Below are positions 7,722 through 60,482 of a DNA stretch of 64,000 nt, piece by piece (within the stretch, counting starts at the first letter, position 1; each line of letters begins with the position of its first letter). This stretch comes from Rikenella sp. (GTDB lineage Bacteria; Bacteroidota; Bacteroidia; Bacteroidales; Rikenellaceae), in assembly GCA_031551865.1 (NCBI GenBank), contig JAVBMY010000012.1, forward strand, positions 8,753 to 72,752, read 5' to 3'. A program made the position numbers and the translations under genes. The notes under the pieces were generated by a model. It searched no databases. It saw nothing but the letters and a program-made list of their open reading frames with translations, and had not been told where the DNA came from.

Positions 7722-7998
7722 TGAGAAAAGAGCGGCCACCCCCACGAGGCGGCTTTGCCGCCTGGGGTGGCCGCGGCATAAACTTCGCAATCTTCGCGGA
7801 TGAAAGAAGCGCCACCCTCCGCCCCTTCAGGGCGGGCTCCCTCCTTCGCTACGGATGCCCTTGAGGCATCCTGCGCTCAGTCGATACGGCCCCGGAGCCT
7901 GCCCTGGGCGAAGCCGAACGCGGGGGCCGTTGAGCTGCTCACTCTGCGCCCGCGGCCGCAAAGTTCGGAGAAATTCGGCCGCCTGACGGCGGCCTCCC
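7722..7998 (+). repeat. Modular intergenic mosaic repeat (modules A-B-C-D, with an E-like insert in the C loop)
   Basis: gcggccaccc..ggggtggccgcggcataaac; aaagaagcgcc; ctcagtcgatacggcccc..ggggccg; ggagaaa..ggcc. Confidence 0.85.
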
Positions 7999-8008
7999 CT
8001 TAAAAACC

Positions 8009-8911
8009 ATGACCGACGACTACCACATACCCGTATTGCTTGAGCGCAGCGTCGACGGGCTCGGCATGCAGCCCGGCGGCACTTACGTCGACGTCACTTT
8101 CGGCGGCGGCGGACACTCGCGCGAGATCTTGCGGCGGCTCGGCCGTAACGGACGGCTCATCTCGCTCGACCAGGACGCCGACGCGCTGGCCAACGCCCCG
8201 CAAGACAAGCGGCTGACCCTCGTGCACGGCAACTTCAGGTTCCTGCGCGGCTACGTGCGCGCCGCCGGTTGCGAACAGGCCGACGGCATTTTGGCCGACC
8301 TCGGCGTGTCGTCGCACCACTTCGACACCGCCGGACGCGGTTTCTCGTTCCGGTTCGAGGGGCCCCTCGACATGCGCATGAACCAGCGCGGAGGCCCCAC
8401 CGCCGCCGACATCGTGAACAACTACGAGCCCCAGGCACTGGCCACCCTCTTCGGCCGCTACGGCGAACTCGACAAGCCCTTCCGCATCGCCAACGCTATC
8501 GAGAAAGCCCGCCTCGAACACCCCATCCGCACCATCGAAGAACTGCTGGCCGCCGTGGAGCATTGCACGCCCCGGGGCGCCGAGTCGAAATTCCGCGCCA
8601 AGCTGTTCCAGGCCCTGCGCATCGAAGTGAACGGCGAAATGACCGCCCTCGAAATGATGCTTTCGCAAGCCATCCGGCTGCTTAAACCCGGCGGGCGGCT
8701 GTCGGTAATCACCTACCACTCGCTCGAAGACCGCATGGTCAAAAACTTCATCCGCAGCGGCAACGCCGCCGGGAACATAGAGAAAGACTTCTTCGGCAAC
8801 GCCAGTGCCCCGCTCAGAGCCATCGGCAAAGCCGGAGAACCCACCGCCGCCGAGATCGCCGACAACCCCCGGGCCCGGAGCGCCCGGCTGCGGGTGGCCG
8901 AGAAACTATAG
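8009..8911 (+). CDS. rsmH: 16S rRNA m4C1402 methyltransferase
   Basis: HIPVLL, DVTFGGGGHS, DLGVSS, PLDMRM, FQALRIEVN, HSLEDR, NPRARSARLR. Confidence 0.97.
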   Translation: MTDDYHIPVLLERSVDGLGMQPGGTYVDVTFGGGGHSREILRRLGRNGRLISLDQDADALANAPQDKRLTLVHGNFRFLRGYVRAAGCEQADGILADLGVSSHHFDTAGRGFSFRFEGPLDMRMNQRGGPTAADIVNNYEPQALATLFGRYGELDKPFRIANAIEKARLEHPIRTIEELLAAVEHCTPRGAESKFRAKLFQALRIEVNGEMTALEMMLSQAIRLLKPGGRLSVITYHSLEDRMVKNFIRSGNAAGNIEKDFFGNASAPLRAIGKAGEPTAAEIADNPRARSARLRVAEKL

Positions 8912-9047
8912 CAACAGCGGCGCCTGACTGACGAGCGATAAAGGCAGGCAGGCTGCCGAAAGAACCCGGGAGTGCGCAAACGCACCCGCCCGGCGGGCAG
9001 GCCGCTCCCAAACTCCCGGCTGCAGCACGACATTCCACATCCCGACC

Positions 9048-9680
9048 ATGCGCAACAAACACCGACATACCCCGTTCGAAACCGACGATTTCCTCGAAGA
9101 GACTGCTACAGGCCGTGAGTCCGGAGACGCCCGTTACGCGACCGGAAAAGAAGCCGGGCCATGGGCAGCGTCCGGCGACTACCCGGCCGAAGATGAGACC
9201 TACGCCCCCGAAGCCTACGACGACCCCTTCACCCTGCCCCGCCCCGGGGGTCCCCGGCGCCCGCGCCGCAAAATGAACATCGGGCAATTCTTCACCGGCA
9301 GCGTCATCGAGCGCAAAGGCTTCACCCGCCTGCTACCCGTGGTGGTATTTGTGGTTGTACTGATGCTGCTCTACATCGGCAACGGTTTCCGGGTGCAGGA
9401 AAAACACAGCCGCATCGACCAGCTCGACAACGAACTGAAGCGCCTCAAAACCCTCTCGGCCACCACCACCGCCGCCCGCATGAGCCTCACGCGGCAGGGG
9501 CGGATCGAAGAGCTCATCCGACAGCGCAACATCCCGCTCACTTTCGGCAAAAACCCCGTCCACATCATCGACCCACGGCCACCCGGGCTGGCCCCCTCGT
9601 CCGCTACCCCACAACCGCCCGTTTCAAACCCGGCCCCCGACGAATCCGGGACCAACACCGGCGCCGATATCCATGAATAG
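9048..9680 (+). CDS. ftsL: FtsL-like cell division protein (start uncertain, possibly 9273)
   Basis: Single TM followed by a coiled coil (LLYIGN..IDQLDNELKRLK); lies directly after rsmH. Confidence 0.7.
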   Translation: MRNKHRHTPFETDDFLEETATGRESGDARYATGKEAGPWAASGDYPAEDETYAPEAYDDPFTLPRPGGPRRPRRKMNIGQFFTGSVIERKGFTRLLPVVVFVVVLMLLYIGNGFRVQEKHSRIDQLDNELKRLKTLSATTTAARMSLTRQGRIEELIRQRNIPLTFGKNPVHIIDPRPPGLAPSSATPQPPVSNPAPDESGTNTGADIHE

Positions 9681-10650
9681 CCCGGCGACATACCCGTGGG
9701 GCGACGGGCGGCGCTACAACAGCTACTCGCGCCACTTCCGCGAACTGTTCGGGACCCGCCTGCAAAAAGTCGCCGTCGACGCCGGATTCACCTGTCCCAA
9801 CCGCGACGGCACCGTCGGCACCGGAGGCTGCACCTTCTGCAACAACGCCGCCTTCACCCCCTCGTACTGCGCGGCGGCGCTGAGCGTCGGAGAGCAGATC
9901 GAGACCGGGATCGCTTTCCACGCCCGCCGCTACCGCAAAGCCGGAGGCTATCTGGTCTACTTCCAGAGTTTTTCGAACACCCATAAACCTTTGGCCGAAT
10001 TGCGCGTCATATACGACGAAGCGGCCGCCCATCCCGACGTGCGCGGCATCGTGGTCGGCACCCGCCCCGACTGCGTCGACGCCGCGAAACTCGACTATTT
10101 CGCCACGCTCGCTGCCCGCAGCGGGCGCCACATTGTGCTGGAATACGGCATCGAATCGGTCTACGACGACACCCTGCGCGCCATTAACCGCGGACACGAC
10201 TTCGCCGCAGCGGAGCGGGCCGTTGCGATGACCGCCGAGCGCGGCCTCCCGTGCGGTGCCCACTTCATCGTGGGACTACCCGGTGAAACCGACGAGATGA
10301 TCCGCGCCTCGGCCACGGCGATCAACGCCTTACCGCTCGACAGCGTGAAATTCCACCAGTTGCAGATCCACCGCGGCACAGCCATGGCCGCCAGTTTCGC
10401 CGCCGATCCGTCGCGATACCGTTTTTTCGGGTTGTCAGCATACCTCGACCTGATGGCCGACCTGCTCGAACGGCTGCGGCCCACGCTGATCGTCGAGCGA
10501 TTCGCAGGCGAGGCCCCGCCGCGCTTCCTGGCCGAAGGAAGCGGCAACACCTGGCACGGCGTGCGCAACGAACGCTTCGTGCAACTGCTCGAACAGCGCC
10601 TCGAAGCGCGCGACGCCTGGCAGGGGCGGCTGGTGCCACAGGGCTACTGA
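9673..10650 (+). CDS. TIGR01212/YhcC-family radical SAM protein
   Basis: DAGFTCPNRDG..GGCTFC, YFQSFSNT, GTRPDC, VKFHQLQI. Confidence 0.92.
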   Translation: MNSPATYPWGDGRRYNSYSRHFRELFGTRLQKVAVDAGFTCPNRDGTVGTGGCTFCNNAAFTPSYCAAALSVGEQIETGIAFHARRYRKAGGYLVYFQSFSNTHKPLAELRVIYDEAAAHPDVRGIVVGTRPDCVDAAKLDYFATLAARSGRHIVLEYGIESVYDDTLRAINRGHDFAAAERAVAMTAERGLPCGAHFIVGLPGETDEMIRASATAINALPLDSVKFHQLQIHRGTAMAASFAADPSRYRFFGLSAYLDLMADLLERLRPTLIVERFAGEAPPRFLAEGSGNTWHGVRNERFVQLLEQRLEARDAWQGRLVPQGY

Positions 10651-10860
10651 GAAAAATCGGGGCTCCCCACCCCGCGAGCGGGCTTCGCCGCCGGGAAAAC
10701 CCGATGGACTAAAGCGGCCCGCGCCAGCCACCGAAGCGCGCCATCGCGCGTTTGGTGCGGATCGCGGAGTTTATCCTGAGCAACCTGCGCGGCAGGCGCC
10801 CGAAGGACTCGCTACACTGTGCCGACACAGAGAAAGGCAGGCCTGCTCCGCAGGCCGCCC
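10651..10860 (+). repeat. Mosaic repeat (expanded E module plus D module)
   Basis: cggagtttatcctgagc..ccgaagg and gagaaaggcaggcctgctccgcaggccgcc. Confidence 0.75.
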
Positions 10861-10938
10861 CGCCATACAAAGCCGCCACCCGGCAAACGCAGCCCTGCCC
10901 CCCCCAACAACCCACCGAAAATCCCTATCTTTGACCCG

Positions 10939-12942
10939 ATGAAAAAACTACTGGCGACCCTCCTGTTCGGCATCACCCTGGTGACCGGCCTTGCCGAAAG
11001 CGCCCGGGCGCAGCTCAACAAACCCTATTTCTTCTACCTCGGCCGCGAATACATCATCGCCGGCCGCTACCGCGAAGCCATCGATGCCCTGAACATGCTC
11101 CTGCGTACCGAAACCAAAGAGTACGAAGGCTACTTCCTGCGCGGCGTCGCCAAATACAACCTCGACGACCTGCTCGGCGCCGAGGCCGATTTCACGCGCG
11201 CCGTCGAAGAGAACCCCGTCTACACGCTCGCCTACCAATACCGCGCCATCACCCGCTCGCGGATGGGCAACTACGAAGAAGGGCTGCAAGACTACAACGC
11301 CGCCCTCGAACTGCGTCCCTCATTGTCGCCCGTCTATTTCAGCCGGGGGGTGACCTACTTCCTCAACCAGCAATTCGAAGCCGCCGCCGCCGACTTCACC
11401 CAATACCTCAAGAATGAGCCCACCGACGTCAACGCCCTCACCAACCGCGGCACCTGCTACCTCTACCTCAAAGACACCGTGCGGGCCTACGCCGACTTCA
11501 ACCGCGCCGTGGCCGTCAACCCCCGCAACGCCGAAGGCTACTTCCGCCGCGGCATCCTCGAAGTGTCGCAGCACAACTACGACCAGGGCATCGCCGACCT
11601 CGACCGCGCCGCCCAGCTCAACGACCGGTGGAGCCCCGTATTCTTCTACCGCGCCCGCGCCAAAGCCGCACAAAACAAAGTCATCGAAGCCCTCGCCGAC
11701 ATGAACCGCGCCATCGATTGCGACACCACCAACTCCGTGGCCTACTTCAACCGCGCCCTGCTGCTCGGCGAGATCGGCGACTACTCGGGCGCCATCGCCG
11801 ACTACGACCGCGTAGCCCTCTACAACCCCGGCAACGTGCTCGTCGTCTTCAACCGCGCTTCGGTCAAGGCCCGTATCGGCGACCTGCGCGGCGCCATCGC
11901 CGACTACACGCGCGCCATCGAACTCTACCCCGACTTCGCGAACGCCTACCTGCGCCGTGCCGACCTCAAAGCCCAACTGCGCGACACGCGCGGCGCCGAA
12001 ACCGACCGCCGCACCGCCAAAACCAAGATCGAGGCCTACCGCAACCAACTGGCCGACCGCTCGTTCTCGGAGTTCGCCGACACCAGCCGCCAGATGAACC
12101 AGATGCTCTCGTTCGACGCCGATTTCGGCGACAATCCCCTGCAAGCCATGACCAGCGACGCCCGCCGCGACGCCCGCCTGCTCCCCTTGTTCCGGGTAAC
12201 CATCGTGCCGCAGGACACCGTCGCCCTATATACCCAGCGCAACTATTACAACGAGCGCCAGGTCCGGCTCCTCGGGTCGCTTGCCGGGCCCGCAGGCTAC
12301 ACCTTCGCCCTCGGGACCCCGGCTTCCGGTTCGGTGCCCACCGACAGCATCGCCGCGTGGGACACCGCCAACGACAAGCCCGAGACCTGGGAAGCCTATT
12401 TCCGCAAAGGGCTGACCCAAAGCGCCCTGACCCAGTACACCTCGGCGATGAGCTACTACACCCGCTCGCTGCACGAAAAGGGCGACAACCCCTACACCTA
12501 CCTCAACCGCGCTGTGACGCAAGCCGAGATGATCGAATTCATCTCGTCGCTCGCCGGTAAATCGGCCCTGCAGACCATCGCCATCGGCGAAAACAATGAC
12601 CCCGCCGCCCGCCTGCTGCAAGGCGAATCGCGCCCCACCTACGACTACAGCGAAGCGATCCGCGACCTGCGCCGCGCCGCCGACCTGATGCCCGAACTGC
12701 CCTACGTATACTACAACCTGGCCAACCTCTACTGCCTGAGCGGCGACCTGCCGGGGGCCATCGACCTCTACACGCAGGCCATCGAGCGCTGGCCCGAATT
12801 CGCCGAAGCCTACTACAACCGGGGCCTGGTGCAGATCTTCCTGCGCGACGTGCAGAAAGGCTGCATGGACATCAGCAAAGCCGGCGAGCTCGGCCTGCAG
12901 GACGCCTACCGCACCCTGCGCGTCTACTGCATCAAGAAATAA
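10939..12942 (+). CDS. Secreted multi-TPR protein
   Basis: Signal peptide; many AY.NRG/A..DY..AI TPR units; TATCTTTG 5 nt before the ATG. Confidence 0.9.
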   Translation: MKKLLATLLFGITLVTGLAESARAQLNKPYFFYLGREYIIAGRYREAIDALNMLLRTETKEYEGYFLRGVAKYNLDDLLGAEADFTRAVEENPVYTLAYQYRAITRSRMGNYEEGLQDYNAALELRPSLSPVYFSRGVTYFLNQQFEAAAADFTQYLKNEPTDVNALTNRGTCYLYLKDTVRAYADFNRAVAVNPRNAEGYFRRGILEVSQHNYDQGIADLDRAAQLNDRWSPVFFYRARAKAAQNKVIEALADMNRAIDCDTTNSVAYFNRALLLGEIGDYSGAIADYDRVALYNPGNVLVVFNRASVKARIGDLRGAIADYTRAIELYPDFANAYLRRADLKAQLRDTRGAETDRRTAKTKIEAYRNQLADRSFSEFADTSRQMNQMLSFDADFGDNPLQAMTSDARRDARLLPLFRVTIVPQDTVALYTQRNYYNERQVRLLGSLAGPAGYTFALGTPASGSVPTDSIAAWDTANDKPETWEAYFRKGLTQSALTQYTSAMSYYTRSLHEKGDNPYTYLNRAVTQAEMIEFISSLAGKSALQTIAIGENNDPAARLLQGESRPTYDYSEAIRDLRRAADLMPELPYVYYNLANLYCLSGDLPGAIDLYTQAIERWPEFAEAYYNRGLVQIFLRDVQKGCMDISKAGELGLQDAYRTLRVYCIKK

Positions 12943-12947
12943 GGCCG

Positions 12948-13180
12948 AGCCGTAAATCGTTCGTTAAACGATTTACGGCTTTGAATCCGCTCTGCGGCTT
13001 CCTCCTCCTTGCGCCTCGGCAATCTGCAAATAAATTTGCATTGCACTCGGCTACTGCGCCGGGTCTTAATGCTTGAGGTTCGAGGGAGCGGGATTTCGGG
13101 GTAGTGGCTTCAAAAAAAGCATCGACGCTACCCTCGCGCCACGCCGGGTCCTTTTTTTGAAGCCACTACCCCGAAATCCC
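12948..13180 (-). repeat. L-element copy 2 (30-bp perfect stem) plus T module plus S hairpin
   Basis: 13090-13119 pairs with 13151-13180; T module at 12981-13066; S hairpin at 12948-12980. Confidence 0.9.
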
Positions 13181-13262
13181 TTGAGAACAAAACAACCCGG
13201 TGGAGGGAGTGGAAAAAAGGAAAAGAAGAAAAACAATAATGAAATTATATTAACCCACCCTT

Positions 13263-14651: not shown

Positions 14652-14671
14652 AACGAAAAGTTTCTCTGAAC

Positions 14672-14822
14672 AAAGAGCGGCCAGCCCACCGGGTTGGCCG
14701 CTGTCATAAGCATGGCACCCTTCACCGAGAAAGAAGCGCCCGGCCTTGCTAAGCACACCCTCCGGTGCGCCGCTCGGCCACAAAGTCCGGAGAAAAGCAG
14801 GCCTGCCTTACGGCAAGCCGCA
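14672..14822 (+). repeat. Mosaic repeat (A, partial B, D)
   Basis: aaagagcggccagccc..gggttggccgc; gagaaagaagcgcc; ggagaaaagcaggcctgcc. Confidence 0.8.
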
Positions 14823-14890
14823 CAATAGACGCGAAAAGCCTTCCGAACACCCTTGCCAGCGTGGGGCAAAATGCGTAGCTTTGCAGGCAT

Positions 14891-16474
14891 ATGGGGAAAC
14901 GGCTGCACCTAAATATTCTCAGGGGTGACAAGGCGCTATGGATCATAGTCAGCCTGTTGTTGCTCGTGTCGCTGCTGATCGCCTATTCCGCCACCACCTC
15001 GGTCGCCTACCGTGTCTACGGCGGCGACTACACCTTTTACCTCTTCCGGCAAATCCGGTTCATCATGATCGGCTTTTTCGTCATCATCCTGTTCCACAGC
15101 CTCAACTACAAAGGATACGCGAAAATCCCCAAAAGCCTGTTCTGGGTGAGCCTTGCGCTCGTGGCCCTGGTCTACTTCATCGGGCTGAGCAAAAACGAGG
15201 CCTCGCGTTGGATGGGCATCCCGGGGCTGATCGCATCGTTCCAGCCTTCGGAAATCCTCAAAGTCGCTTTAATTATCCTGCTCGCCCAGCAACTCGGTGC
15301 CCGGCAGCACTACATCGGGCGCGCCCCGCTGCTTCCCCCGCTCACCTCGGGCGGCTGGAAGGCCAATCCCCAGCGCAGCCGCAACATCTACCACAACATC
15401 AGCAAGCCCCTGCTGCTCCCGCTGCTGCTGAGCTGCGCCCTGGTCATGCCCTCGAACCTCTCGACCGCCCTGATCATCTTCGGGGCCTGCACTGTGATGA
15501 TGTCCGCGGGTGGCGTCCGGGCGCGCCAGCTGACCAAATTCGTTTTCCTCACCCTTCTGGCCGGACTGCTCATGCTGAGCGCCATGAAACTGGCCGGCGT
15601 GGGACGGGCGCAAACCCAGTTCAACCGCATCGTGCAATTTGTGACCCCGGCGGCCGGCGAGAACGGCGGCGAAGAGTCGAACGCCAACAAATTCCAGGTC
15701 GAACAAGCCAACATCGCCATCGCCTCGGGCGGCATCTTCGGCAAAGGCCCCGGCAACAGTACCCAGCGCTCGCAACTCCCCCACGCCTACGACGACTTCG
15801 TGTACGCCTTCATCGTCGAAGAATACGGCCTCGTGGGCGGCATTATCATCTTCGTACTCTACCTGTGGCTCTTCTACCGGTCGGGACTGATCGCCAGCCA
15901 GACCCGGCACCCCGCCAAAGCGCTGATCGTGATCGGGCTGAGCACCATGATCACCATGCAGGCCTTCGTGAACATGTGCGTGTCGGTGGGGCTGATGCCC
16001 GTCACCGGGCAGCCGCTGCCCCTGATCAGCATGGGAGGCAGTTCGGTAATGATGACCTGTGTGGCCATCGGACTGATCCTGGGCGTGAGCCGCGAGAACG
16101 AAAAAGAACGCCTGGCCGAAGAGAAGGCTTTGGCTGCCGAAGCCGCCGAAGAAGAAGCATCGCCCGCTGCTGCAGGGGTTGCCGCTTTGCCGCGCGCCGC
16201 GGACGATAACAAAGTTCTTGCAAGCTCTAAAACAGAGGCTACCGGACCTCCTGACCACAGCCATTCGGCACCCGTCAGTAAAGCGAATAAAAAGACCTCG
16301 CTCTTTGCCCGACAAGAAGCCCCTTCTTCGCCAGTTCCGGTTGTTGCAGGCGAAGACGACGATGAACTTCGGCTCGTGGATCGCAGCGCGCCCGGCACCA
16401 CTGCCACCGGTACCGGACACCGCGAAGTGATCAACCTCGAAGACGACGACTGGGATGATGAAGCGCCGTTCTAA
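14891..16474 (+). CDS. ftsW: SEDS peptidoglycan polymerase FtsW, with long acidic C-tail
   Basis: SFQPSEILK, GKGPGNS, DFVYAFIVEEYG, PVTGQPLPLISMGGSS. Confidence 0.93.
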   Translation: MGKRLHLNILRGDKALWIIVSLLLLVSLLIAYSATTSVAYRVYGGDYTFYLFRQIRFIMIGFFVIILFHSLNYKGYAKIPKSLFWVSLALVALVYFIGLSKNEASRWMGIPGLIASFQPSEILKVALIILLAQQLGARQHYIGRAPLLPPLTSGGWKANPQRSRNIYHNISKPLLLPLLLSCALVMPSNLSTALIIFGACTVMMSAGGVRARQLTKFVFLTLLAGLLMLSAMKLAGVGRAQTQFNRIVQFVTPAAGENGGEESNANKFQVEQANIAIASGGIFGKGPGNSTQRSQLPHAYDDFVYAFIVEEYGLVGGIIIFVLYLWLFYRSGLIASQTRHPAKALIVIGLSTMITMQAFVNMCVSVGLMPVTGQPLPLISMGGSSVMMTCVAIGLILGVSRENEKERLAEEKALAAEAAEEEASPAAAGVAALPRAADDNKVLASSKTEATGPPDHSHSAPVSKANKKTSLFARQEAPSSPVPVVAGEDDDELRLVDRSAPGTTATGTGHREVINLEDDDWDDEAPF

Positions 16475-16507
16475 GTGCGCACCCGCACTGGGGATTATTC
16501 TTTCGTA

Positions 16508-16794
16508 GAGAAAAGAGCGGCCAGCCCGGCCCCCCGGTCGGCTCGCAAAGAAAAAAACGCCCGCCCGCACCCGGCGAGGTACGAGGTCGCGCCAACAATT
16601 ACTTACCCGTTGGCAGGCCAGTTAACTTTTACGAATTGTGGTTGACAGGATGTCCCTGATGCCTGCGGTTGGCCGGTTGCCGACGCAGGAGGAATTCGCG
16701 CCCGCCCCGGCCCCCTTTAGGGCGGGCGCACTCCTTTACCGGAATCGTATGCACAATTCCGTTTCAGTCGGTACGGCCCCCTTACGGGGCCGCC
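16508..16794 (+). repeat. Mosaic repeat (partial A, B, C)
   Basis: gagaaaagagcggccagccc; gcgcccgccc..gggcgggcgc; tcagtcggtacggccccc..ggggccgcc. Confidence 0.8.
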
Positions 16795-16844
16795 AAAAGC
16801 ACCCTCCGACCAACCCCTGCCTGCCCCGCAACCACTCTCCATAC

Positions 16845-18236: not shown

Positions 18237-18309
18237 AGGCATTTACCCGTCCCCGAGTGACTCCGGCGCCGGGTATCGCCGCTACTACTGGCATTGCCAC
18301 CTTTGCCGG

Positions 18310-18572
18310 AAAAAAGCGGCGGCCCCCAGCCTCCTCCCGACGGCCCACCGACGACCATAGCGAGGGTGACCGAATTTATTCAGATCGCCGAGCAAGTAGG
18401 AGAAAGAGGCCACAACGTGGACTCAAAGGCCGTGGGGCTGGGCACTCGGCTGATGCACGAGAAAAGGCGGCCACCCCACCCCCGTGAGCGACCTTTGTCC
18501 GCTGGGGTGGCCGCGGCATAAACACTACAACCTTCGCGGAGAAAAGCAGGCCTCGCTGCGCGAGGCCTGCCA
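18310..18572 (+). repeat. Mosaic repeat (hairpin with nested T module, then A and D)
   Basis: T-like 18350-18426 (reverse orientation) inside cccagcc..acggcc/ggccgt..ggctggg; A at 18467-18545; D at 18539-18572. Confidence 0.8.
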
Positions 18573-19786: not shown

Positions 19787-20035
19787 AGAGAAAAAACGTC
19801 CCGCACCAGCCGCCGAAACAGAGAAACTCGCGCCCACTCCGCAAGATGCAAAGCGTCTGGGTCTGTCGGTTACCATAAGCACTACACCCTTCGCGGAGAA
19901 AGAAGCGCCCACCCGCACCTGGCGAGTTCGCGAAGCGAACTGCGGGTGGGCCCCGGCCTCGCTAAGCATGGCTCTGCGCGTGCAGCCCGGCCGCCAAGCC
20001 CGGAGAAAGGCAGGCCTGCCTCACGGCAGGCCGCC
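19787..20035 (+). repeat. Mosaic repeat (A tail, B, D)
   Basis: cataagcactacacccttcgcggagaaagaagcgcccacccgca..tgcgggtgggc; ggagaaaggcaggcctgcc. Confidence 0.8.
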
Positions 20036-20118
20036 AAAAGAAACGGGGTACACAGACGCACCCCGACGACAAACCGCGACTCCGGCCCCACGACCGAAGA
20101 CCGTCCGAACCACACCGA

Positions 20119-22536: not shown

Positions 22537-22812
22537 AGAAGCGCCCACACCCACACACCCGAGGCACTGCGTGCCTGGGTGTGGCCGCTAAACATTTTTG
22601 ATGCAATCTCCGTTGAGAAAGAATCGGGCGCCCCTGCCCCGATCGCACAAAGCGCGAGGGGCGCCCGATAAGCTGCCGCCGGAGAAAGAAGCGCCCATCC
22701 GCAGGCGCCCAAGGTGCCTGCGGGTGGGCGTTCGGCCTCGCTGAGCACGCTCCGTGCATGCCGCTCGACCGCTAAGAAAGGCAGGCCTGCGTGCCTGCGG
22801 CACGCAGGCCAC
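22537..22812 (+). repeat. Mosaic repeat (A variant, B, D)
   Basis: ggagaaagaagcgcccatccgcagg..cctgcgggtgggcg; aagaaaggcaggcctgcgtgcc..ggcacgcaggcc. Confidence 0.8.
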
Positions 22813-22904
22813 CGCACACAAAATCCGCCCATCCCGGCACAGCTATTGCATACACCCTTTCCGGCTCCAACAACCTCCATACGACCAACGACTACCAGAA
22901 CCCC

Positions 22905-24453: not shown

Positions 24454-24559
24454 ATGCCATCCCGAGCGAAGCCGAGGGAACTTTCCAATAACAGGTGTAG
24501 ACCACAGGTACGGGTCTGCCTCTTATTGGAAAGTTCCCTCGGCTTCGCTCGGGATGACG
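24454..24559. repeat. REP-like inverted dimer (GTCA/CGTC-type), 34-bp perfect arms
   Basis: 24458-24491 is the exact reverse complement of 24523-24556. Confidence 0.9.
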
Positions 24560-28420: not shown

Positions 28421-28500
28421 GCTGACGCTGGCAGTGAGTGCAATCAAGTTTGCTTGCATTGCCGAGCGCCGAGGAGGAAAAGGCCACGCAGTGGACTTAA
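28421..28500 (-). repeat. T module copy
   Basis: Reverse complement ttaagtccactgcgtggccttttcctcctcggcgctcggcaatgcaagc..attgcactc matches 12981, 30146 and 49397. Confidence 0.85.
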
Positions 28501-28768: not shown

Positions 28769-30109
28769 ATGGCAGACAGGAAATTCATTGTGGTGATCGG
28801 AGGCGGCGAGAGCGGCTACGGTTCGGCGGTCTTGGCGCAGGAACAGGGCTTTGAGGTGTTGGTGAGCGATAGCGGGGCCATTAAGGAGCCTTACCGTTCG
28901 CAGTTGGCCGAACGCGGGATAGCCTTCGAGGAAGGTGGGCACAGCGAAGAGAAGATACTCGGCGCCGCCGAGATCATCAAAAGTCCCGGCGTGCCCGATA
29001 GCGCACCCTTGATCGTGAGAGCAAGGGAGCGAGGGATTCCCATCATCTCCGAGATCGAATTCGCCGGTCGCTATACCGGCGGCGCAAAGACCATCTGCAT
29101 CACCGGCAGCAACGGTAAAACCACCACCACCTCGCTGATATATGAGATCCTGCGCGGGGCGGGTTTCGACGCCGAGTGCTGCGGCAACATCGGGCGGAGC
29201 TTCGCCCAGGTTGTCGCCGAGCGCGGCGAGCGGCAACCCCGGTGGTACGTGCTTGAGATCAGCAGTTTCCAGCTCGACGGCATGTACGATTTCCGCGCCG
29301 ACATCGCCCTGCTGCTCAACATCACCCCCGACCATCTCGACCGCTACGACCACCGCATGGCGCTGTACTCCTCCAGCAAATTCCGTGTGGCGCGTAACCA
29401 GCGCCCTGGCGACACGTTCGTCTACTGCGCCGACGACCCCGAGATAGGGAGCGGTTTAGCTGACGCCCCCGGTGCAGCCGTACGGGTTCCCTTTTCGGTG
29501 ACGCGTCCCGTGGCCGGCGCCTGGTTCGACGGCACCCTGCTCCACTTCGAAGACTTTTCCTTTCCAGCCCCGGCGCTGAAAATCAAAGGGCTGCATAACA
29601 TCCTCAACGCACTGGCCGCCATCGTGGCCACCCTGCGGGCCGGCGCCGCCCCCGAAGCCGTGGCCAGCGGACTCGAAACCTTCGCAGGCGTCGAGCACCG
29701 CCTCGAACACGTGCGCTATGTAGGCAACGTCGAATACATCAACGACTCGAAAGCCACCAACGTCGCCTCGGTGCGCTACGCCCTCCAATCCATGACCCGC
29801 CCCACCGTCTGGATCGCCGGGGGCACCGACAAAGGCAACGACTACAAAGAGATCGAGTCCCTCGTGCGCGAACACGTCAAAGCCCTCGTCTGCCTGGGCG
29901 CCGACAACGCCAAACTCGTCAAAGCCTTCACCGGCGTGGTGCCCGAAATCTACGACACTCATTCGTTGGAAGAGGCCATTGCCGCCTGCCGCCGCGCTGC
30001 CGCGAGCGGCGACATCGTACTGCTCTCGCCCGCCTGCGCAAGCTTCGACCTGTTCCGGAACTACGAAGATCGCGGCCGGCAGTTCAAGGCCGCCGTGAAG
30101 GCGCTGTAA
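28769..30109 (+). CDS. murD: UDP-MurNAc-L-Ala--D-Glu ligase
   Basis: GGGESG, ITGSNGKTTT, LEISSFQL, PDHLDRY, NDSKATN, SPACASFD. Confidence 0.97.
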   Translation: MADRKFIVVIGGGESGYGSAVLAQEQGFEVLVSDSGAIKEPYRSQLAERGIAFEEGGHSEEKILGAAEIIKSPGVPDSAPLIVRARERGIPIISEIEFAGRYTGGAKTICITGSNGKTTTTSLIYEILRGAGFDAECCGNIGRSFAQVVAERGERQPRWYVLEISSFQLDGMYDFRADIALLLNITPDHLDRYDHRMALYSSSKFRVARNQRPGDTFVYCADDPEIGSGLADAPGAAVRVPFSVTRPVAGAWFDGTLLHFEDFSFPAPALKIKGLHNILNALAAIVATLRAGAAPEAVASGLETFAGVEHRLEHVRYVGNVEYINDSKATNVASVRYALQSMTRPTVWIAGGTDKGNDYKEIESLVREHVKALVCLGADNAKLVKAFTGVVPEIYDTHSLEEAIAACRRAAASGDIVLLSPACASFDLFRNYEDRGRQFKAAVKAL

Positions 30110-30111
30110 GC

Positions 30112-30480
30112 AAAAGGCGGCCACCCCACCCCCGCGAGCGGCCTTTGAGTCCTTCGGTCTCCTGCTCCTTGTGCCTCAGCAATTCAAGCAAGCTTGATTG
30201 CACTCGGCTACTGCGTCGCTCGTGCGCTGGGGTGGCCGCGGTATAAGCATTGCACCCTTCGCGGAGAAATTCGCGCCCACCCCCCTCGGGGGGGGCGCGC
30301 TCCCTCGCCGACAAATGCCTGACGGCATTCGCGGCTCAGTCGATACGGCCCCTACGGGGCCGCCGAGCCGCGCACTTCGCGACTAAAGTCGCTCCGTGAC
30401 GCGGCCGCTACGGCCTCGCGGAGTTTACCCGGCCGAAGCTGCGAGGAACGAAGCAGGCAGCCGAATGGGCGAGGCCTCCA
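30112..30480 (+). repeat. Most complete mosaic repeat: A[T nested]-B-C-D[Z nested]
   Basis: A 30116-30268 with T at about 30146-30218; C 30333-30365 identical to 60419-60451; Z 30421-30468. Confidence 0.9.
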
Positions 30481-49197: not shown

Positions 49198-49536
49198 AAT
49201 CGCCCGCGGCCAGGGGCCGAAACTCGCAAAGCGAGTTTGGCCGCGGACGATTGGCTGACGCAAAAGAAATTCGCAGCCGTTCCGCCGTCCGAAAAGAAGC
49301 GCCCGGCCCGTAGCCCCCTCGCGCAAAGCGCTACGGGCCGGGCGCTCTCCTTTACCAGAACCGTTTGCACGGTTCCGGCTCAGTCGGTACGGCCCCTTAA
49401 GTCTGCTACGCAGCCTTTTCCTCCTCGACGCTCGGCAATTTGCAAACGAATTTGCATTGCTCTCGCTCCAGCGTCGGTTGCGGGGCCGCCATTCGGCTTC
49501 CTTCTTCGTTCCTCGCAGCTTCGGCAGGGTAAACTC
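49198..49536 (+). repeat. Mosaic repeat: B, C[T nested], inverted Z
   Basis: gaagcgcccggcccgtagc..gctacgggccgggcgc; ctcagtcggtacggcccc[T 49397-49478]ggggccgcc; Z at 49489-49536. Confidence 0.88.
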
Positions 49537-50633: not shown

Positions 50634-50715
50634 ACAGAGAAAAGGGACCCTGCAAAACGGCGTAAAGCAGCCCGGGCTGGCCGCGGCATCCACACGGCAA
50701 CCATCGCAAAACAGG

Positions 50716-50750
50716 AGCGGCCCCGCACGGTTAAGTGCGGGGCCGCTTTA
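50716..50750. terminator. Bidirectional terminator hairpin
   Basis: agcggccccgcac/gtgcggggccgct between convergent genes. Confidence 0.7.
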
Positions 50751-50780
50751 TTATTCAGCACCTTCAAAAGGGAAACCGGC

Positions 50781-53195: not shown

Positions 53196-53493
53196 AGGGT
53201 CTTTCGCAAGGGTTTGTACGGAAGGTAAAGGTACGAATTTAGTTGGGAAGCAAAAAACGACGGAAAACAGGAGAACGGCCGGTTGACGCCGCAACTTTCA
53301 CAGAGAAAAAGCGTTCGCCCCCCGACGGGCTACAGGCCCGGGACTATTTCACAGCCTCCTGCCCGCCCGGTACAGATCGCAAACAATCTATACCTTCGAC
53401 ACGGGTGTCGCCCCGCTAAGCGCGCTCATCGCGGCGGCGCCCGGAGCCGCCATTCGCGGAGAAGGGGAGGCTGCGCTCTGGGCGGGGCCGGCC

Positions 53494-54945: not shown

Positions 54946-55253
54946 TTTATTAATTTGTCGACGATTGTTATTCACGGCCCTTGCTACGCGGGGGAGGGGT
55001 AATGAGGGGAGGTGGCATAACCCCTGCAACCATTCAGCGTTTAGGTCGGCTAATGTGGCTCTGCTCACGCACAACAAAAGTAGAAGCAGCGCCCTGAAGC
55101 GGGGGTTGGCCAAGGGGGCTGCCGCCCCCTTGTATTCGCTTTTGGCTACTTTTGTCGAATAACAAAAGTAGCTGCGGTCCGCGGCACACGCGGGTCGGAG
55201 AGAAGACCTAAAGGAACGTTCAAACGATAAGAAGACATCTTGCTACGACAAAA

Positions 55254-55316
55254 GAGATTGCTTCCCACCGGAGTTTATCCTGAGCGAAGCCGAAGGAGCT
55301 CTCCGCAATAACGAAA
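55254..55316 (+). repeat. REP arm with nested E module; inverted partner of 58731-58790
   Basis: 55268-55301 is the exact reverse complement of 58746-58779. Confidence 0.9.
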
Positions 55317-55338
55317 GAATCCGCCGTGTGCGGTCACA

Positions 55339-57168: not shown

Positions 57169-57171
57169 AGG

Positions 57172-57693
57172 TTAGGCCTTTCTGTAGGTGGCTTTCGTAT
57201 GGTTAAACGGCAGGTGCAGGAAATATATTACGGCGGTGACCAGGACAGTGCTGAAAATAATGCGCATCAGGATTACCCAGAAGGCGCCGTTGGGGTCTTC
57301 GAGCAGGAAGAAGGGGACATTGAACAGCAAGGTCATCACGGCCACGTAGCGAATGAACCTCCAGGTGCCCACGCGCCCCGCCACAGGCAGCCCGCCATCG
57401 GAGACGATCTCTTTGCCGAGCATGAAGTTGGCCGTAGCGGGCCGGACGAAGGCCAGCCATGTCGCTACCATGGCGTGCAGGCCAGGGGTACCGGCCAGCA
57501 GGTCCATCACCAGGCCGGTGGCGAATCCGAGCACGAGCAGCAGCCAGCCTTCGGTGGCCAGCGGCAGCATGATGATGAACATGATGTAGATGTACGGGCT
57601 GGTCAGCACGCCGAAGTTGATGTTGTCGAACACGAACTCCTGCAACGCGACAAGCAGCACGAAAGCCAGCAGGTATTGTAGGAAACTGCGCAT
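57172..57693 (-). CDS. mreD: Rod shape-determining protein MreD
   Basis: Hydrophobic; GLVMDL..TPGLHA; synteny. Confidence 0.85.
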   Translation of the reverse strand: MRSFLQYLLAFVLLVALQEFVFDNINFGVLTSPYIYIMFIIMLPLATEGWLLLVLGFATGLVMDLLAGTPGLHAMVATWLAFVRPATANFMLGKEIVSDGGLPVAGRVGTWRFIRYVAVMTLLFNVPFFLLEDPNGAFWVILMRIIFSTVLVTAVIYFLHLPFNHTKATYRKA

Positions 57694-57705
57694 ATCGGGG
57701 AACTG

Positions 57706-58725
57706 TTATATTCCGGGGGTTCCGGTGTTTTCCGGGGTAGTCTCGCCGCCGGACGTTTCGCTTGCGGCGCCGGAGTCGGCGTCGCGCCCGGGTTGGTCGG
57801 GAGCGGCGGCTTCGCGGTTCACGGGCTGGGGGACGGGACGGTTGGGGTCGAACGAGCGGTCGCCCTGCCCGGGACGGGTGTAGGGGGCGGGCTCGGCGGT
57901 TTCGTTATAGTAGGCATTCTCAAGCAGGCGGCGCTCCTGTTCGTCGTAGTATTTCACGGCGTAGACGTTGCGCACCTGTGCGAGGTCGGCGAAGAGCCGC
58001 ACGCGGAGTTTGTAGAAGGTGCCGTTGATGAGTTCGTAATCGGCGATGGTGCCGATGGGCACGCCGGGCGGGAAGATGCCGGAGTGTTCGGTGGTGACGA
58101 TGGTGTCGCCGGGAGCCATCGAGGCGTATTTGGGAATCTCGTCGAGGATCACCTCGCGGAAACTCATGCCGTCCCAGTAGATCGAGCCGTAAAAATCGCT
58201 GCCCTGGATGCGGCCGCTGGTGCGGAATTTGGTGTTGAGCACCGACATGGCCACCGAATAGTTGTCGGAACATTGCACGACGTAACCCACGATGCCGCCG
58301 GGACTGACGAGGGCCATGTTGGGCTGCATTCCCTGCAGGGCTCCCTGGTCGAGGATGATGTAGTTCTCACGCTTGGTGATGCGGTTTCGAATGATCCGCA
58401 CGGGCTGGTACTGGTAGTATTGCAACAGGCCGGACACGGGAAGCGTGTCAGCAGCCAGCGCGGCGGCGTGGCGGCAAGTTTCGAGTTCGGTACGCAGGAC
58501 GGCGATCTCGCTGCGGAGCTGTTCGTTGTCGGTGCGCAGGCCGAAATAGTTTCCGACGGCGGCGGCACGGGCATAGAAGAAGTTGGTGACTTTGCCCGAA
58601 AGACTGAGCCAGCGGGCCTCGTACTGGACGTTGCTGTGCACGAAAACACTGACCGCTATCGCTTCGAGCACGATAAACAGCAGTACGAAGTGTATTTTCC
58701 TAAGGAATAATAGGAACCGGATCAT
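57706..58725 (-). CDS. mreC: Rod shape-determining protein MreC
   Basis: TM plus coiled coil; GIVG, GDTIVT..SGIFPPGVPIG. Confidence 0.92.
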   Translation of the reverse strand: MIRFLLFLRKIHFVLLFIVLEAIAVSVFVHSNVQYEARWLSLSGKVTNFFYARAAAVGNYFGLRTDNEQLRSEIAVLRTELETCRHAAALAADTLPVSGLLQYYQYQPVRIIRNRITKRENYIILDQGALQGMQPNMALVSPGGIVGYVVQCSDNYSVAMSVLNTKFRTSGRIQGSDFYGSIYWDGMSFREVILDEIPKYASMAPGDTIVTTEHSGIFPPGVPIGTIADYELINGTFYKLRVRLFADLAQVRNVYAVKYYDEQERRLLENAYYNETAEPAPYTRPGQGDRSFDPNRPVPQPVNREAAAPDQPGRDADSGAASETSGGETTPENTGTPGI

Positions 58726-58730
58726 TATAT

Positions 58731-59050
58731 TTTCGTCATTGCGAGGAGCTCCTTCGGCTTCGCTCAGGATAAACTCCGGCGACGAAGCATCCTTATGCGG
58801 CTTCTTTGCCGCCCGGGTGTTTTTTACTGTCTCCCCTCTCTGATCCGCGTATGTCGCGGACTGCGTGGCGGCCGCGCGCAGAGCGCGGCCAGATTTTCGG
58901 CCTCGGCGCAGCAAAGCGGGTATAGCGGCCACCCGCGACGCGTAAAACGCGCTCGCCGGGTGCGGGTGCCCGATTCTTTTCGGAGGCGCGGTTCCCGGTT
59001 GCGGAGCCTGTGCCGAGCTCAGTCGAGGAATCTCCTCGCAGTAACAGGCG
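58731..59050 (-). repeat. REP arm with nested E module plus reverse-oriented mosaic fragments
   Basis: cgtcattgcgaggagc[..]gcgacgaagca; the reverse complement of 58965-58985 resembles 22610-22634. Confidence 0.75.
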
Positions 59051-59091
59051 CCTCCGCCCCACTCCCTTCAGCTTCACTTTCTTGTTTTCAA

Positions 59092-59244
59092 GGGTTGCGA
59101 GGTAGGGGTTTCAAAAAAGGACCCGACGCGGTGCGAGGACATGAGCGCGGGTAGCGTCGCTGTTTTTTTGAGTTCCCTCCCCGCCAACCCGTACTTCCCC
59201 AACAAGAAAGCATAAAAAATCGTTTCCCGATTTTTTATGCTTTC
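59092..59244 (+). repeat. L-element copy 3 plus S hairpin
   Basis: Imperfect stem 59092-59118/59164-59190 around the conserved loop; 17-bp S hairpin 59206-59244. Confidence 0.85.
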
Positions 59245-59252
59245 CCTCCTTT

Positions 59253-60275
59253 CTACCGCATCAGGAACGAGAAACGGTCGATGTTCTTGAGGGCGATGCC
59301 GGTGCCTCGGGCCACGGCGCGCAGCGGGTCTTCCGACACGTGGAACTTGATGCGGGTCTTCTGGTAGAGGCGCTTGTCGAGCCCGCGCAGGAGCGCGCCG
59401 CCGCCGGCCAGATAGACGCCGTTCTTCACGATGTCGGAATAGAGTTCCGGCGGGATCTTTTCGAGCACCTTCATGATGGCGGTGTCCATCTTCATGAGCG
59501 ACTTGTCGAGCGCTCGGGCGATCTCCTTGTACGAGATGGGCACTTCGAGCGGCAGCGCCGTGATGATGTTCGGGCCGCGCACGATGTAGTCTTCGGGCGG
59601 GGTATCGAGGTTATCGATCGCCGCGCCGACTTCGATCTTGATCTCTTCGGCGGTGCGTTCGCCGATCTTGATGTTGTGCTGCTGTCGCATGTAGGCCTGG
59701 ATATCTTCGGTGAAGACGTCGCCCGCCACGTTGATGCTCTCGTTGCAGACGATACCGCCGAGCGAGATCACGGCCACTTCGGTCGTGCCCCCCCCGATGT
59801 CGACTACCATGTGGCCCTGCGGGGCCTCGACGTCGAGGCCCATCCCGAGGGCGGCGGCCATCGGTTCGAAGATCATGTAGACTTCGCGCCCCCCGGCGTG
59901 TTCGGCCGAGTCGCGCACGGCGCGGATCTCGACGTTGGTCGAGCCGCTGGGGATGCAGACCACCATGCGGAGCGAGGGGCTGAACATGGTGTTGCGCGAT
60001 TTGATCATCTTGATCATGCCGCGGATCATGAGTTCGGCGGCCGTGAAGTCGGCGATCACGCCGTCGCGCAGCGGGCGGATGGTCTTGATGTTCTGGTGCG
60101 TTTTGCCGTGCATGCGGCGGGCTTCGTTGCCGATGGCCACGAGCTTGTTGGTGTGCTGGTCTATGGCGACGATCGAGGGTTCATCGACCACGATCTTGTC
60201 GTTGTAGATGATCACCGTGTTGGCGGTACCGAGGTCCATGGCCAACTCCTGCGTCAGGAATGAAAATAGTCCCAT
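59253..60275 (-). CDS. mreB: Actin-like MreB
   Basis: DLGTANT, EPS, PLRDGVIADF, DIGGGTTE, GGGALL. Confidence 0.97.
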   Translation of the reverse strand: MGLFSFLTQELAMDLGTANTVIIYNDKIVVDEPSIVAIDQHTNKLVAIGNEARRMHGKTHQNIKTIRPLRDGVIADFTAAELMIRGMIKMIKSRNTMFSPSLRMVVCIPSGSTNVEIRAVRDSAEHAGGREVYMIFEPMAAALGMGLDVEAPQGHMVVDIGGGTTEVAVISLGGIVCNESINVAGDVFTEDIQAYMRQQHNIKIGERTAEEIKIEVGAAIDNLDTPPEDYIVRGPNIITALPLEVPISYKEIARALDKSLMKMDTAIMKVLEKIPPELYSDIVKNGVYLAGGGALLRGLDKRLYQKTRIKFHVSEDPLRAVARGTGIALKNIDRFSFLMR

Positions 60276-60350
60276 TGTGTTTTTGGTGTTTTTAGGTATT
60301 CAGGATTCGGAACCGGCGCGTTCCGGCGTTCGGTTATTGTTTTGTATGCC

Positions 60351-60482
60351 GAGAATTTCGCACCCGCCCCCCTTTAGGGCGGGCGCGCTCCTTCGCCTCA
60401 GCCGCTTACGCGACTAAAGGCTCAGTCGATACGGCCCCTACGGGGCCGCCGTGCCGCTCGCTCAACGCTCGCGGCCGCTAAG
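60351..60482 (+). repeat. Mosaic repeat (B, C)
   Basis: cccgccccctttagggcgggcgcg; 33-bp C module identical to 30333-30365. Confidence 0.88.

Follow-up and report, generated by a model that had tools for sequence, protein, structure and literature searches.

Ordered hairpin modules form an intergenic repeat family in a Rikenellaceae-like gut genome

Introduction

The gaps between genes in the stretch of 64,000 nucleotides analysed here (the window) are filled at eleven sites with G+C-rich palindromes that recur in the same order. The window belongs to the 1.94-Mb genome of a Rikenellaceae-like, uncultured bacterium of an invertebrate gut, and several of the filled gaps lie between division and cell wall (dcw) genes. 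What kind of element are these palindromes, how did they come to lie there, and do they serve the genes next to them? An earlier note, made from the sequence of the window, had described four modules, A, B, C and D, and had read them as a REP/BIME-like or MITE-like family or as a repeated structured RNA.

Results

Module structure of the window arrays

Modules as described were present at all eleven sites (Table 1), and their motifs were far more frequent than expected by chance. The D head GAGAAARGCAGGCCT and the C head CTCAGTCGRTACGGCCCC each occur five times in the window against 0.00 expected from dinucleotide-preserving shuffles, and the linker CYTTCGCGGAGAAA, with up to two mismatches, occurs 12 times against 1.59 expected from such shuffles. 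The 33-base identity reported between 30333 and 60419 is exact. The four-module scheme describes real modules but is incomplete, since it lacks the hairpins h2 and E and the nested element I.

A, B and D are versions of a single kind of unit, in which the head CGGAGAAA is followed by 2–4 bases and a G+C-rich hairpin. An extra variable hairpin, h2, preceded by a conserved CTCCTT, lies between B and C, and a further long hairpin, E (GCCGCG..CGCGGCCGC), is often present 3' of C. Element I, of about 80 bases, is nested in the A loop of one array and in the C loop of another. Together, the modules define a master form of about 280–330 bases whose five to seven G+C-rich hairpins succeed one another in a set order (A, B, h2, C, E, D) and are joined by the conserved single-stranded linkers CCTTCGCGGAGAAA, GCTCCTTCG, GCTCAGTCGRTAC and AAGYCCGGAGAAA. 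The array at 7719..8000 folded as RNA at −147 kcal/mol (z = −4.27).

Table 1. Hairpin arrays of the window, with the matches of the B-h2-C structure model
Position (strand)	Setting	Modules	Structure-model match
7719..8000 (+)	3' of esterase gene, before rsmH	Near full-length: head GAGAAA 7723; A hairpin ~7732-7775; A tail; B unit ~7807-7850; h2 7853-7871; C head CTCAGTCGATAC 7876-7887 and hairpin; E-like hairpin 7923-7959; D-type unit (head 7968, hairpin 7977-7994)	7829-7904
10649..10866 (+)	After mnmL; head overlaps stop codon (TGAGAAAAA)	Diverged A-like hairpin; Z motif GGAGTTTATCC at 10766; D unit (head 10830, hairpin 10836-10859)	
14664..14826 (+)	Between MFS gene and ftsW	A hairpin 14676-14702; A tail; fused B/E unit (head 14727); D unit (head 14790, hairpin 14797-14821)	
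16506..16796 (+)	Between ftsW and murC	Head 16508; truncated A hairpin 16517-16546; B-like hairpin 16559-16580; other hairpins; B 16698-16729; CTCCTT; h2 16740-16761; C head; h3 16774-16792	16719-16796, 78.5 bits
18458..18575 (+)	Between murC and murG	A (head 18459); D (head 18539, hairpin 18546-18570) follows immediately via shared CCTTCGCGGAGAAA linker	
19787..20040 (+)	Between murG and ftsQ	Degenerate heads 19788, 19821; A tail ATAAGCACTACACCCTTCGCGGAGAAA; long-stem B 19901-19950; E hairpin; D unit (head 20003, hairpin 20009-20035)	
22537..22815 (+)	Between ftsA and ftsZ	A-like hairpin 22554-22583; unit with head 22615; B with 19-pair stem 22691-22731; E; D (head 22774, hairpin 22784-22810)	
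30108..30445 (+)	Between murD and mraY	A split by nested element I (30147-30225); A tail; B 30272-30299; h2 30307-30335; C and h3 30335-30362; E hairpin; Z motif 30420	30288-30366, 84.3 bits
49285..49500 (+)	After transglutaminase-like gene	Long-stem B; CTCCTT; h2 49355-49378; C head 49379; h3 loop broken by element I (49398-49478)	
58912..58979 (−)	Upstream of mreC	Single A-like unit in reverse orientation	
60351..60482 (+)	Between mreB and purH, both minus strand (array antisense to its neighbours)	B 60359-60387; CTCCTT; h2; C and h3 60421-60448; E hairpin	60376-60452, 90.7 bits (best)

Most copies lack some of the units. The observed cluster forms are AD, BC, AB, ABC, AABC, ABD, AAD and BD, with the internal modules variably present, and the order A, B, C, D is kept in 18 of the 19 multi-module clusters of single orientation, which bears out the description of a dispersed non-coding hairpin family with ordered modules. 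The junctions of short arrays sit inside the shared head CGGAGAAA, for example at 18531-18553 where A runs directly into D, and from this position we infer that units were lost through slippage or recombination between heads. Such head-to-head loss would delete modules without permuting their order. All modules point the same way in 69 of the 74 clusters of the genome, and the other five are mixed. The start of A matches the D end in inverted form only over GGCGGCC, and we found no empty site, no target duplication and no terminal inverted repeat of more than about 7 bases that would mark the end of an element.

Distribution in the genome

The A–D modules form 74 clusters on most contigs and are thus not confined to the region of the window, and a structure-model search detected 46 copies of the B-h2-C core in the genome. 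Repeated sequence makes up 18% of the intergenic DNA, and contig C13 is nothing special in this respect. The link to essential genes that had been proposed is an effect of the window, because copies lie across most contigs about as densely as on C13.

The head CGGAGAAA was counted 98 times in intergenic DNA, which is 21% of the genome, and 69 times in coding DNA. A strong hairpin follows it in 37% of the intergenic cases, as compared with 12–13% in the controls. This longer head was taken as the hairpin tag in place of plain GAGAAA, whose short length makes it unspecific (a hairpin follows 13% of its occurrences and 6–9% of control hexamers). No two copies are identical beyond a few tens of bases, and therefore there is no sign of recent activity of the family.

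An assembly artefact was also considered and rejected. Unitigs from a DNA run cross the ftsW-murC, murC-murG, murG-ftsQ and ftsA-ftsZ gaps with no mismatch, although this run may itself be the source of the assembly. The repeats do affect annotation, as they artificially extend the ORF calls of murC, murG, ftsZ, mreC and a TPR gene. For example, the reverse unit upstream of mreC sits within an over-long ORF call (57706-58932), in which the match to the MreC family starts at residue 70.

Covariation of stems and conservation of linkers

In an alignment of 41 copies, 87.4% of the cells pair, as compared with 67.6% in shuffles, and none of 500 shuffles reached the observed value. Double changes were found in all 13 pairs, and compensated cells numbered 95 against 29.8 expected. 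When the partners were slid by 1–3 columns as a control, pairing was found in only 26–40% of cells. The linkers are conserved while the stems vary, as had been described for the purine-rich linkers: the share of the commonest base is 0.87 in linker columns and 0.72 in stem columns.

It is known that hairpins can be created and maintained by template switching (PMC8794818). The complementarity of the drifting stems may be kept either by selection for the hairpin or by arm-to-arm template switching during replication. Strong covariation together with conserved linkers is also expected of a functional RNA or a protein-binding site.

Orientation, terminator likeness and transcription

The clusters are oriented sense to their flanking genes in 39 cases and antisense in 15 (about 2.6:1; p = 0.0015), a moderate bias based on our own crude gene calls. 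About a quarter to a third of the copies are antisense to both neighbours. The two strands differ in their likeness to a terminator. On the GAGAAA strand, GAGAAA precedes a hairpin that has no U tail, while on the opposite strand TTTCTCC follows each hairpin and resembles an intrinsic terminator. The minus strand of the dcw arrays gave a terminator-like score at nine module sites, and the layout of an intrinsic terminator, a G+C-rich hairpin with a U-rich tail, is absent from the transcribed strand of the sense copies, which are the majority. Selection may have purged copies whose terminator-like strand was transcribed in operons, and this would leave the excess of sense copies. Polycistronic mRNAs probably carry the sense copies as stable stem-loops, which could change mRNA decay or attenuation, like REP and BOX elements.

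The read data were contigs of three runs from one study. One metatranscriptome contig (22141-22636) passes the ftsA stop codon and enters the array, but as a single contig it is weak evidence of transcription. Contig joints and indels at module sites were considered as signs of module gain or loss, but they arise where other copies, at 90% likeness, cross-map to these sites. They are thus no evidence of gain or loss, and they carry no usable signal of transcript ends.

These properties could be those of a domesticated cis-acting RNA device, a kind of operon punctuation, in which the hairpins and linkers in the mRNA set the stability, processing or translation of the cistrons, or the opposite strand terminates antisense transcription into essential operons. 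The strongly covarying stems, the conserved linkers, the excess of sense copies, the terminator-like opposite strand and the RNA contig that runs into the array past ftsA all agree with such a role. The arrays at 10649, 19787, 22537 and 30108 start 0–20 bases past stop codons, and an A/C-rich leader of 30–100 bases separates the ends of arrays from the next start. However, the copies antisense to both neighbours, a module content that varies from gap to gap without relation to the genes, and the interruption of copies by element I without apparent harm do not fit this role. Furthermore, the family is absent from all relatives searched, whose same operons work with junctions of a few bases. We therefore regard a dedicated RNA device as unlikely.

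Restriction to the lineage and gene order of the dcw cluster

A DNA query with the repeat gave no match in 40 relatives, and a search of 60 relatives with the B-h2-C structure model was likewise negative. In addition, 300 genomes of the same family lack the B core. Scanning JGI metagenome contigs with the B-core pattern gave 0 matches. Two matches to the C head in these contigs were ascribed to chance, since both lie in coding DNA of unrelated contigs of high G+C content. An exact-protein look-up with MreB for a second strain returned no match, and no close relative of FtsQ turned up among 5.8 billion proteins; the databases contain no second strain.

In the congeners G002 and G010, the ftsW|murG|murC junctions are at most 15 bases long, while the gaps here measure 160–400 bases and are filled with modules. 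In this lineage, the elements have entered intergenic space, including dcw junctions that span no more than a few bases in congeners. The order of the dcw genes is scrambled here: ftsW, murC and murG follow one another, murD is next to mraY, and murE and ftsI are inverted.

The scrambled order could mean that the palindromic units are DNA recombination sites, similar to attC or to the ends of invertible segments, at which excision, inversion and reordering of genes took place. Arrays lie at 8 of the 11 junctions of the rearranged cluster, and the gene order departs from that of congeners exactly at module-filled gaps; this comparison of junctions with relatives covers the smaller part of the 74 clusters. 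Palindromic copies repeat one another in direct and in inverted orientation alike, and the genome encodes four tyrosine recombinases; none of these genes lies in the window, and no recombinase is near the arrays. The ftsA|ftsZ gap has an array with no rearrangement, the stems have just 7–12 base pairs and differ between neighbouring arrays, and the arrays of the cluster are all in plus orientation, which simple inversions between arrays would not leave. This explanation is very unlikely in our judgement. Another conceivable reading is a punctuation system peculiar to the lineage, in which hairpins with a common head are read by a putative protein, as DNA or as RNA, and insulate genes of the former operon, giving breakpoints for gene-by-gene reordering of the dcw cluster without loss of function. 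If true, essential genes would here be organised like cassettes with no integron involved, and we consider this reading highly improbable.

Search for a mobiliser and for known families

A scan of 50 window ORFs with NCBIfam or Pfam revealed no transposase, in line with the earlier note. It had also proposed a search for a RAYT, GIY-YIG or reverse transcriptase gene beside the best-conserved copies, and this lead gave no mobiliser. No match to TnpB, IS110, rve or reverse transcriptase was found in the genome, and GIY-YIG is present only in one ORF of 646 residues. Y1_Tnp (PF01797), the RAYT domain, is absent from the genome and from 13 congeners; 7 of these 14 genomes are at least 90% complete. 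No mobilising gene was thus found in an assembly that is 82.5% complete. Repeats are often missing from assemblies of such incompleteness.

An origin from the ends of an IS, plasmid or phage, from a tRNA or from a known RNA family was considered and found no support. The only DDE transposase region, at the start of contig C14, has nothing in common with the repeats, and the repeats have no match in plasmids or phages. The C head resembles the D-arm of a tRNA, but ARAGORN found no tRNA in the window and there was no Rfam tRNA match, and a tRNA-derived origin was rejected. No Rfam 15 family matched the window or the arrays tested at gathering scores, in agreement with the view that this is not a described family. 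The matches in two arrays were at chance level, with 15.9–19.5 bits against thresholds of 37–64.

A classical REP/REPIN family could have been mobilised by a RAYT (HUH Y1 transposase) encoded in the unassembled 17% of the genome. As in REPs (PMC3733652), the units are short palindromes rich in G+C, have one end marked by an unpaired tag, and fall into stem subtypes that covary. The assembly is also incomplete. However, Y1_Tnp is absent, as given above, from every congener as well; the conserved unpaired flank is CGGAGAAA plus 2–4 bases, and no GTAG or CGTC adjoins the A, B, C or D stems; and the units are direct and not arranged as inverted pairs. From these three observations we conclude that the repeats are not a REP/RAYT system. 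The mobilising enzyme is not a RAYT, and a classical RAYT-driven family is extremely improbable.

Discussion

The intergenic repeats of the window are probably a lineage-specific, non-coding and non-autonomous composite repeat of the BOX/BIME kind, and would by the same judgement be placed among the small interspersed repeats, the class that also holds BOX, BIME and BrickBuilt. The family adds one more member to a class of bacterial repeats that is already familiar; it represents neither a novel type of system nor a new mechanism.

The BOX elements of Streptococcus pneumoniae and S. suis (Croucher et al. 2011, PMC3049150) are likewise non-coding, small interspersed composites of distinct modules in fixed order, in which internal modules can be absent or repeated. 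They are species-specific, their mobiliser is uncertain, they are predicted to form stem-loops on transcription, and they are often co-transcribed with neighbouring genes. As the BOX-type elements of streptococci reach seven modules in fixed permutations (PMC3049150), the richness of the module grammar seen here is not unprecedented. The present family belongs to another phylum and shares no apparent sequence with BOX, as compared without alignment to BOX sequences. In BOX, the boundary modules boxA and boxC pair together, whereas here there is no terminal pairing or inverted end beyond GGCGGCC, and each module is its own hairpin with the shared purine-rich head.

REP/BIME elements of Proteobacteria (PMC2817692, PMC3733652, PMC3116915) are also extragenic G+C-rich palindromes of 20–40 bases with unpaired motif tags at one end. 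They form mosaics with conserved linkers, have stem subtypes with compensatory changes, and are sited after stop codons and inside operons. In contrast to the REPs of a BIME, which alternate in orientation (PMC2817692), the units here are direct; the tag is GGAGAAA and not GTAG or CGTC (PMC3733652); and no RAYT gene was found in the genome or its genus. The BrickBuilt MITE of Porphyromonas gingivalis (Klein et al. 2015, PMC4596501) is, like the present family, a species-limited, strictly intergenic modular repeat of the Bacteroidales with leader and tail subunits and a few tens of copies per genome. However, BrickBuilt consists of a single 23-base unit repeated in tandem without gaps, and has small inverted ends (PMC4596501), while the modules here are different hairpins, separated by linkers and in fixed order.

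The family adds a well-characterised example from a Rikenellaceae-like gut bacterium to the small interspersed repeats, with a structure model, a copy census, a grammar, a polarity and covariation. Its strong covariation within one genome makes it a useful test case for hairpin selection against the template-switch "self-correction" of palindromes. The case also shows that such repeats can colonise junctions even of the dcw operon, which is normally compact, and that they are accompanied here by a shuffled order of genes.

Modules and their order

All eleven sites in the window at which the earlier note had placed an ordered A-B-C-D mosaic of palindromic modules hold the modules described, and the 33-base identity between 30333 and 60419 is exact. 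The heads of C and D each occur five times in the window, against 0.00 expected from dinucleotide-preserving shuffles, and the CYTTCGCGGAGAAA linker occurs 12 times (1.59 expected). The four-module scheme was incomplete, since two more hairpins belong to it: a variable hairpin, h2, which together with a conserved CTCCTT separates B from C, and a long extra hairpin, E, often present behind C. The modules A, B and D have a common plan, i.e., a CGGAGAAA-type head, 2-4 bases and a G+C-rich hairpin. The CGGAGAAA sequence was found 98 times in intergenic and 69 times in coding DNA, the latter being nearly four times larger, and had a strong hairpin behind it in 37% of the intergenic cases (12-13% in controls).

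Genome-wide, the A-D modules of this Rikenella sp. assembly (G000) form 74 clusters of neighbouring matches. The order A, B, C, D was kept in 18 of the 19 multi-module clusters with a single orientation (forms AD, BC, AB, ABC, AABC, ABD, AAD and BD), and the one exception was ADB. A covariance model of the B-h2-C core, spanning the B 3' arm, CTCCTT, h2, CTCAGTCGRTAC and the hairpin behind the C head (h3), detected 46 copies. The junctions of short arrays fall within the shared head: CCTTCGCGGAGAAA leads into B at 30256 and 19888, and straight into D at 18531. This position fits the loss of units from a longer master element by slippage or recombination between heads. About 75 kb (18%) of the intergenic DNA has at least one other copy in the genome, and the contig carrying the window is not richer in repeats than contigs C8, C12, C14 or C17.

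Features of the window, with genome-wide copy numbers of the modules
Feature	Position in window	Strand	Content or copies
Module A			13-32 copies in G000 (iterated nhmmer profiles)
Module B			37-42 copies in G000 (iterated nhmmer profiles)
Module C			9-13 copies in G000 (iterated nhmmer profiles)
Module D			24-27 copies in G000 (iterated nhmmer profiles)
Near full-length copies	7719-8000; 30108-30445
Arrays starting about 15 bases or less from a stop codon	10649; 19787; 22537; 30108
Module sites in terminator scan, dcw region	22810; 22798; 19926; 19845; 16578; 16531; 14819; 10674; 7753	-	nine sites
Element I	12982-13062 (+); 18347-18425 (-); 28423-28499 (-); 30147-30225 (+); 49398-49478 (+)
~35-base family	24457-24557; 55275-55297 with 58750-58772; 62112-62190
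~190-base element	5588-5775		one copy
GGAGTTTAYCC motif	6042; 10766; 30420; 49527 (-); 55270; 58767 (-)
Bacteroidetes-type -7 box (TAnnTTTG)	10926-10941; 14876-14893		5-7 bases upstream of ATG of TPR gene and ftsW
dcw-type cell-wall/division cluster		+	rsmH, FtsL-like gene, mnmL, TPR gene, MFS gene, ftsW, murC, murG, ftsQ, ftsA, ftsZ, thioredoxin-like gene, aspA, murD, mraY
"murE" and "ftsI"		-	MurE-like Mur ligase gene, FtsI-type PBP gene
Genes beyond murE/ftsI		-	rodA, mrdA, mreD, mreC, mreB, purH

Folding and covariation

The array at 7715-8005 folds far better than its shuffles (z = -4.27), and almost all of the 23 h2 hairpins lying between CTCCTT and CTCAGTC fold, with differing stems. 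In 41 aligned copies, standard pairs occupied 87.4% of the cells versus 67.6% in column shuffles, a level reached by none of 500 shuffles; these pairing figures are biased towards structure, as the copies were aligned to fit the model, but the margin is still large. Two-sided changes occurred at all 13 pairs, the compensated cells numbered 95 (29.8 expected), and pairing was only 26-40% once the partners were slid by 1-3 columns. The linkers are conserved and the stems variable, as noticed at first reading: the commonest base averages 0.87 of copies in linker columns and 0.72 in stem columns. Perfect stems can arise and be maintained by template switching between the arms of an inverted repeat (PMC8794818), which would offer a non-selective route to the stem covariation.

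Orientation and transcription

The clusters are mostly in the sense orientation to both neighbouring genes (39 versus 15 antisense; binomial p = 0.0015). The same excess was seen for single module hits (63 versus 21) and for the B-h2-C core (19 versus 9), of which four more copies, all co-oriented, lie within over-long ORF calls. Read on the opposite strand, each unit looks like a hairpin with TTTCTCC behind it. Intergenic hairpins of this genome generally have an A-rich flank on one side, indicating that ordinary hairpin-plus-T terminators exist in it. The simplest reading of the sense excess would be selection against copies oriented such that transcription of an operon would run through the terminator-like strand. 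A REP within an operon can stabilise the mRNA upstream of it, and one located at most about 15 bases from a stop codon can lower translation of the upstream gene.

Logan unitigs of a DNA run, which may be the MAG's own source, cross the module-filled gaps without mismatch. One metatranscriptome contig (22141-22636) begins within ftsA, passes the ftsA stop codon (22527) and reaches the first units; this single contig, in which DNA carry-over is possible, is compatible with co-transcription of ftsA and the array. The TPR gene and ftsW may be near-leaderless with promoters of their own, because the -7 box lies so close to the ATG. No such box is present at murC, murG, ftsQ and ftsZ, whose transcription probably passes through the arrays. 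For the TPR gene, murC, murG, ftsZ and mreC, the longest-ORF calls are too long, with starts extending into repeats.

Gain of the arrays in the lineage

The genome comprises 1.94 Mb in 18 contigs, with a G+C content of about 59% and an estimated completeness of 82.5%. The window DNA was found in an invertebrate-gut metagenome. The closest outside match to the window FtsZ is from an uncultured Rikenella MAG (55% identity), and within the GTDB genus the identity goes no higher than about 60%.

The dcw order is scrambled as compared with same-genus genomes (window 8009-36029), and the scrambled junctions are backed by the unitigs. The order is ftsW-murC-murG, versus ftsW-murG-murC in two congeners, G002 and G010; murD is ahead of mraY, the murE-like and ftsI-type genes are inverted past mraY, and the cluster is interspersed with the foreign genes mnmL, TPR, MFS and aspA.

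In G002 and G010, the ftsW/murG and murG/murC junctions are at most 15 bases, and the ftsA/ftsZ gap of about 70-100 bases is without modules. The matching gaps in G000, where murC and murG are swapped, are 160-400 bases long and filled with arrays. The arrays were therefore gained in the G000 lineage. The G002 murC/ftsQ gap (locus L098, 16100-17200) is about 1 kb long and filled with repeats peculiar to G002 and unrelated to this family, namely units of the AACCGTAGGTTTAAAT type bearing G+C-rich hairpins; thus, the repeat families at dcw junctions differ between species of the genus.

The B-C DNA query had no match in 40 relatives, and the covariance model had none in 60 (13 congeners, 23 genomes from the same family and 24 from the same order). 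When two mismatches were allowed, the B core was detected 12 times in G000 and not once in 300 genomes of the family. JGI metagenome contigs, scanned for exact matches, contained no B core and only two C heads, both chance matches in coding DNA. Plasmid and phage collections contained no match to the repeats, and Rfam gave no family at gathering scores, with otherwise chance-level matches only.

Search for a mobilising enzyme and other repeats

The scan of 50 ORFs in the window detected no transposase, in agreement with the first reading. Among the enzymes that the earlier note had proposed as partners, Y1_Tnp (RAYT, IS200) is absent from G000 and all 13 congeners, reverse transcriptase had no match in G000, and the only GIY-YIG match there is a 646-residue ORF. 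TnpB, IS110 and rve had no match in G000, and its four tyrosine recombinases all lie outside the window. The profile searches of G000 thus gave no positive evidence for any mobilising partner, an absence that is not proof, as MAGs tend to lose multi-copy elements. The sole DDE_Tnp_1 transposase gene (532-residue ORF, G000:C14:1-2900) was rejected as a source: its region is an A+T-rich 2.8-kb contig end sharing no sequence with the repeats. This end (~2.8 kb) has a composition unlike the rest of the genome, and may be foreign or mis-binned.

Other repeats occupy the same landscape. Element I is a structured repeat of ~80 bases (TAAGTCCACTGCGTGGCC TTTTCCTCCTCG .. GGCAAT..ATTGC .. GCGTCGGT) with about 87-117 copies in G000 and no orientation bias (52:39). 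It sits inside other repeats (the A loop, the C loop, behind CTCCT of B, and the 35-base family), lacks inverted ends and any visible target duplication, and its flanks are usually pyrimidine/T. It is similar in layout to IS200/IS605-derived miniature elements, but the Y1 transposase is absent here. The most abundant repeat of G000 is the ~35-base family (ATGTCATCCCGAGCGAAGCCGAGGGAACTTTTCAA; more than 70 BLAST partners), mostly in inverted pairs, and the mrdA-mreD-mreC block lies between the members of one diverged pair. About 50 copies of a ~190-base element, which has inverted ends (GCTTATCCGCAATAATACCCC ... GGGGTATTATTGCGGATAAGC) and the form of a classical MITE, are present in the genome. 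The motif GGAGTTTAYCC, with ..GCCGAAG.. behind it, is present within or next to several arrays and in a 34-base inverted pair around mrdA-mreC; it is a further module of this landscape.

Relation to known repeat families

The REP/BIME-like assignment of the earlier note holds in part: extragenic tagged palindromes, mosaics and covarying stems are common to both (PMC2817692, PMC3733652, PMC3116915), but the defining RAYT gene, GTAG or CGTC tag and alternating or inverted orientation are missing. The nearest in grammar are BOX-type elements, which combine distinct modules in fixed permutations and can lack internal ones (PMC3049150), although their boxA-boxC terminal pairing has no clear counterpart here. 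BrickBuilt (PMC4596501) is the described Bacteroidales analogue, but consists of a single 23-base unit repeated in tandem. The family of G000 is best read as a BOX/BIME-like composite hairpin repeat specific to its lineage, which has polarity and stems that covary strongly.
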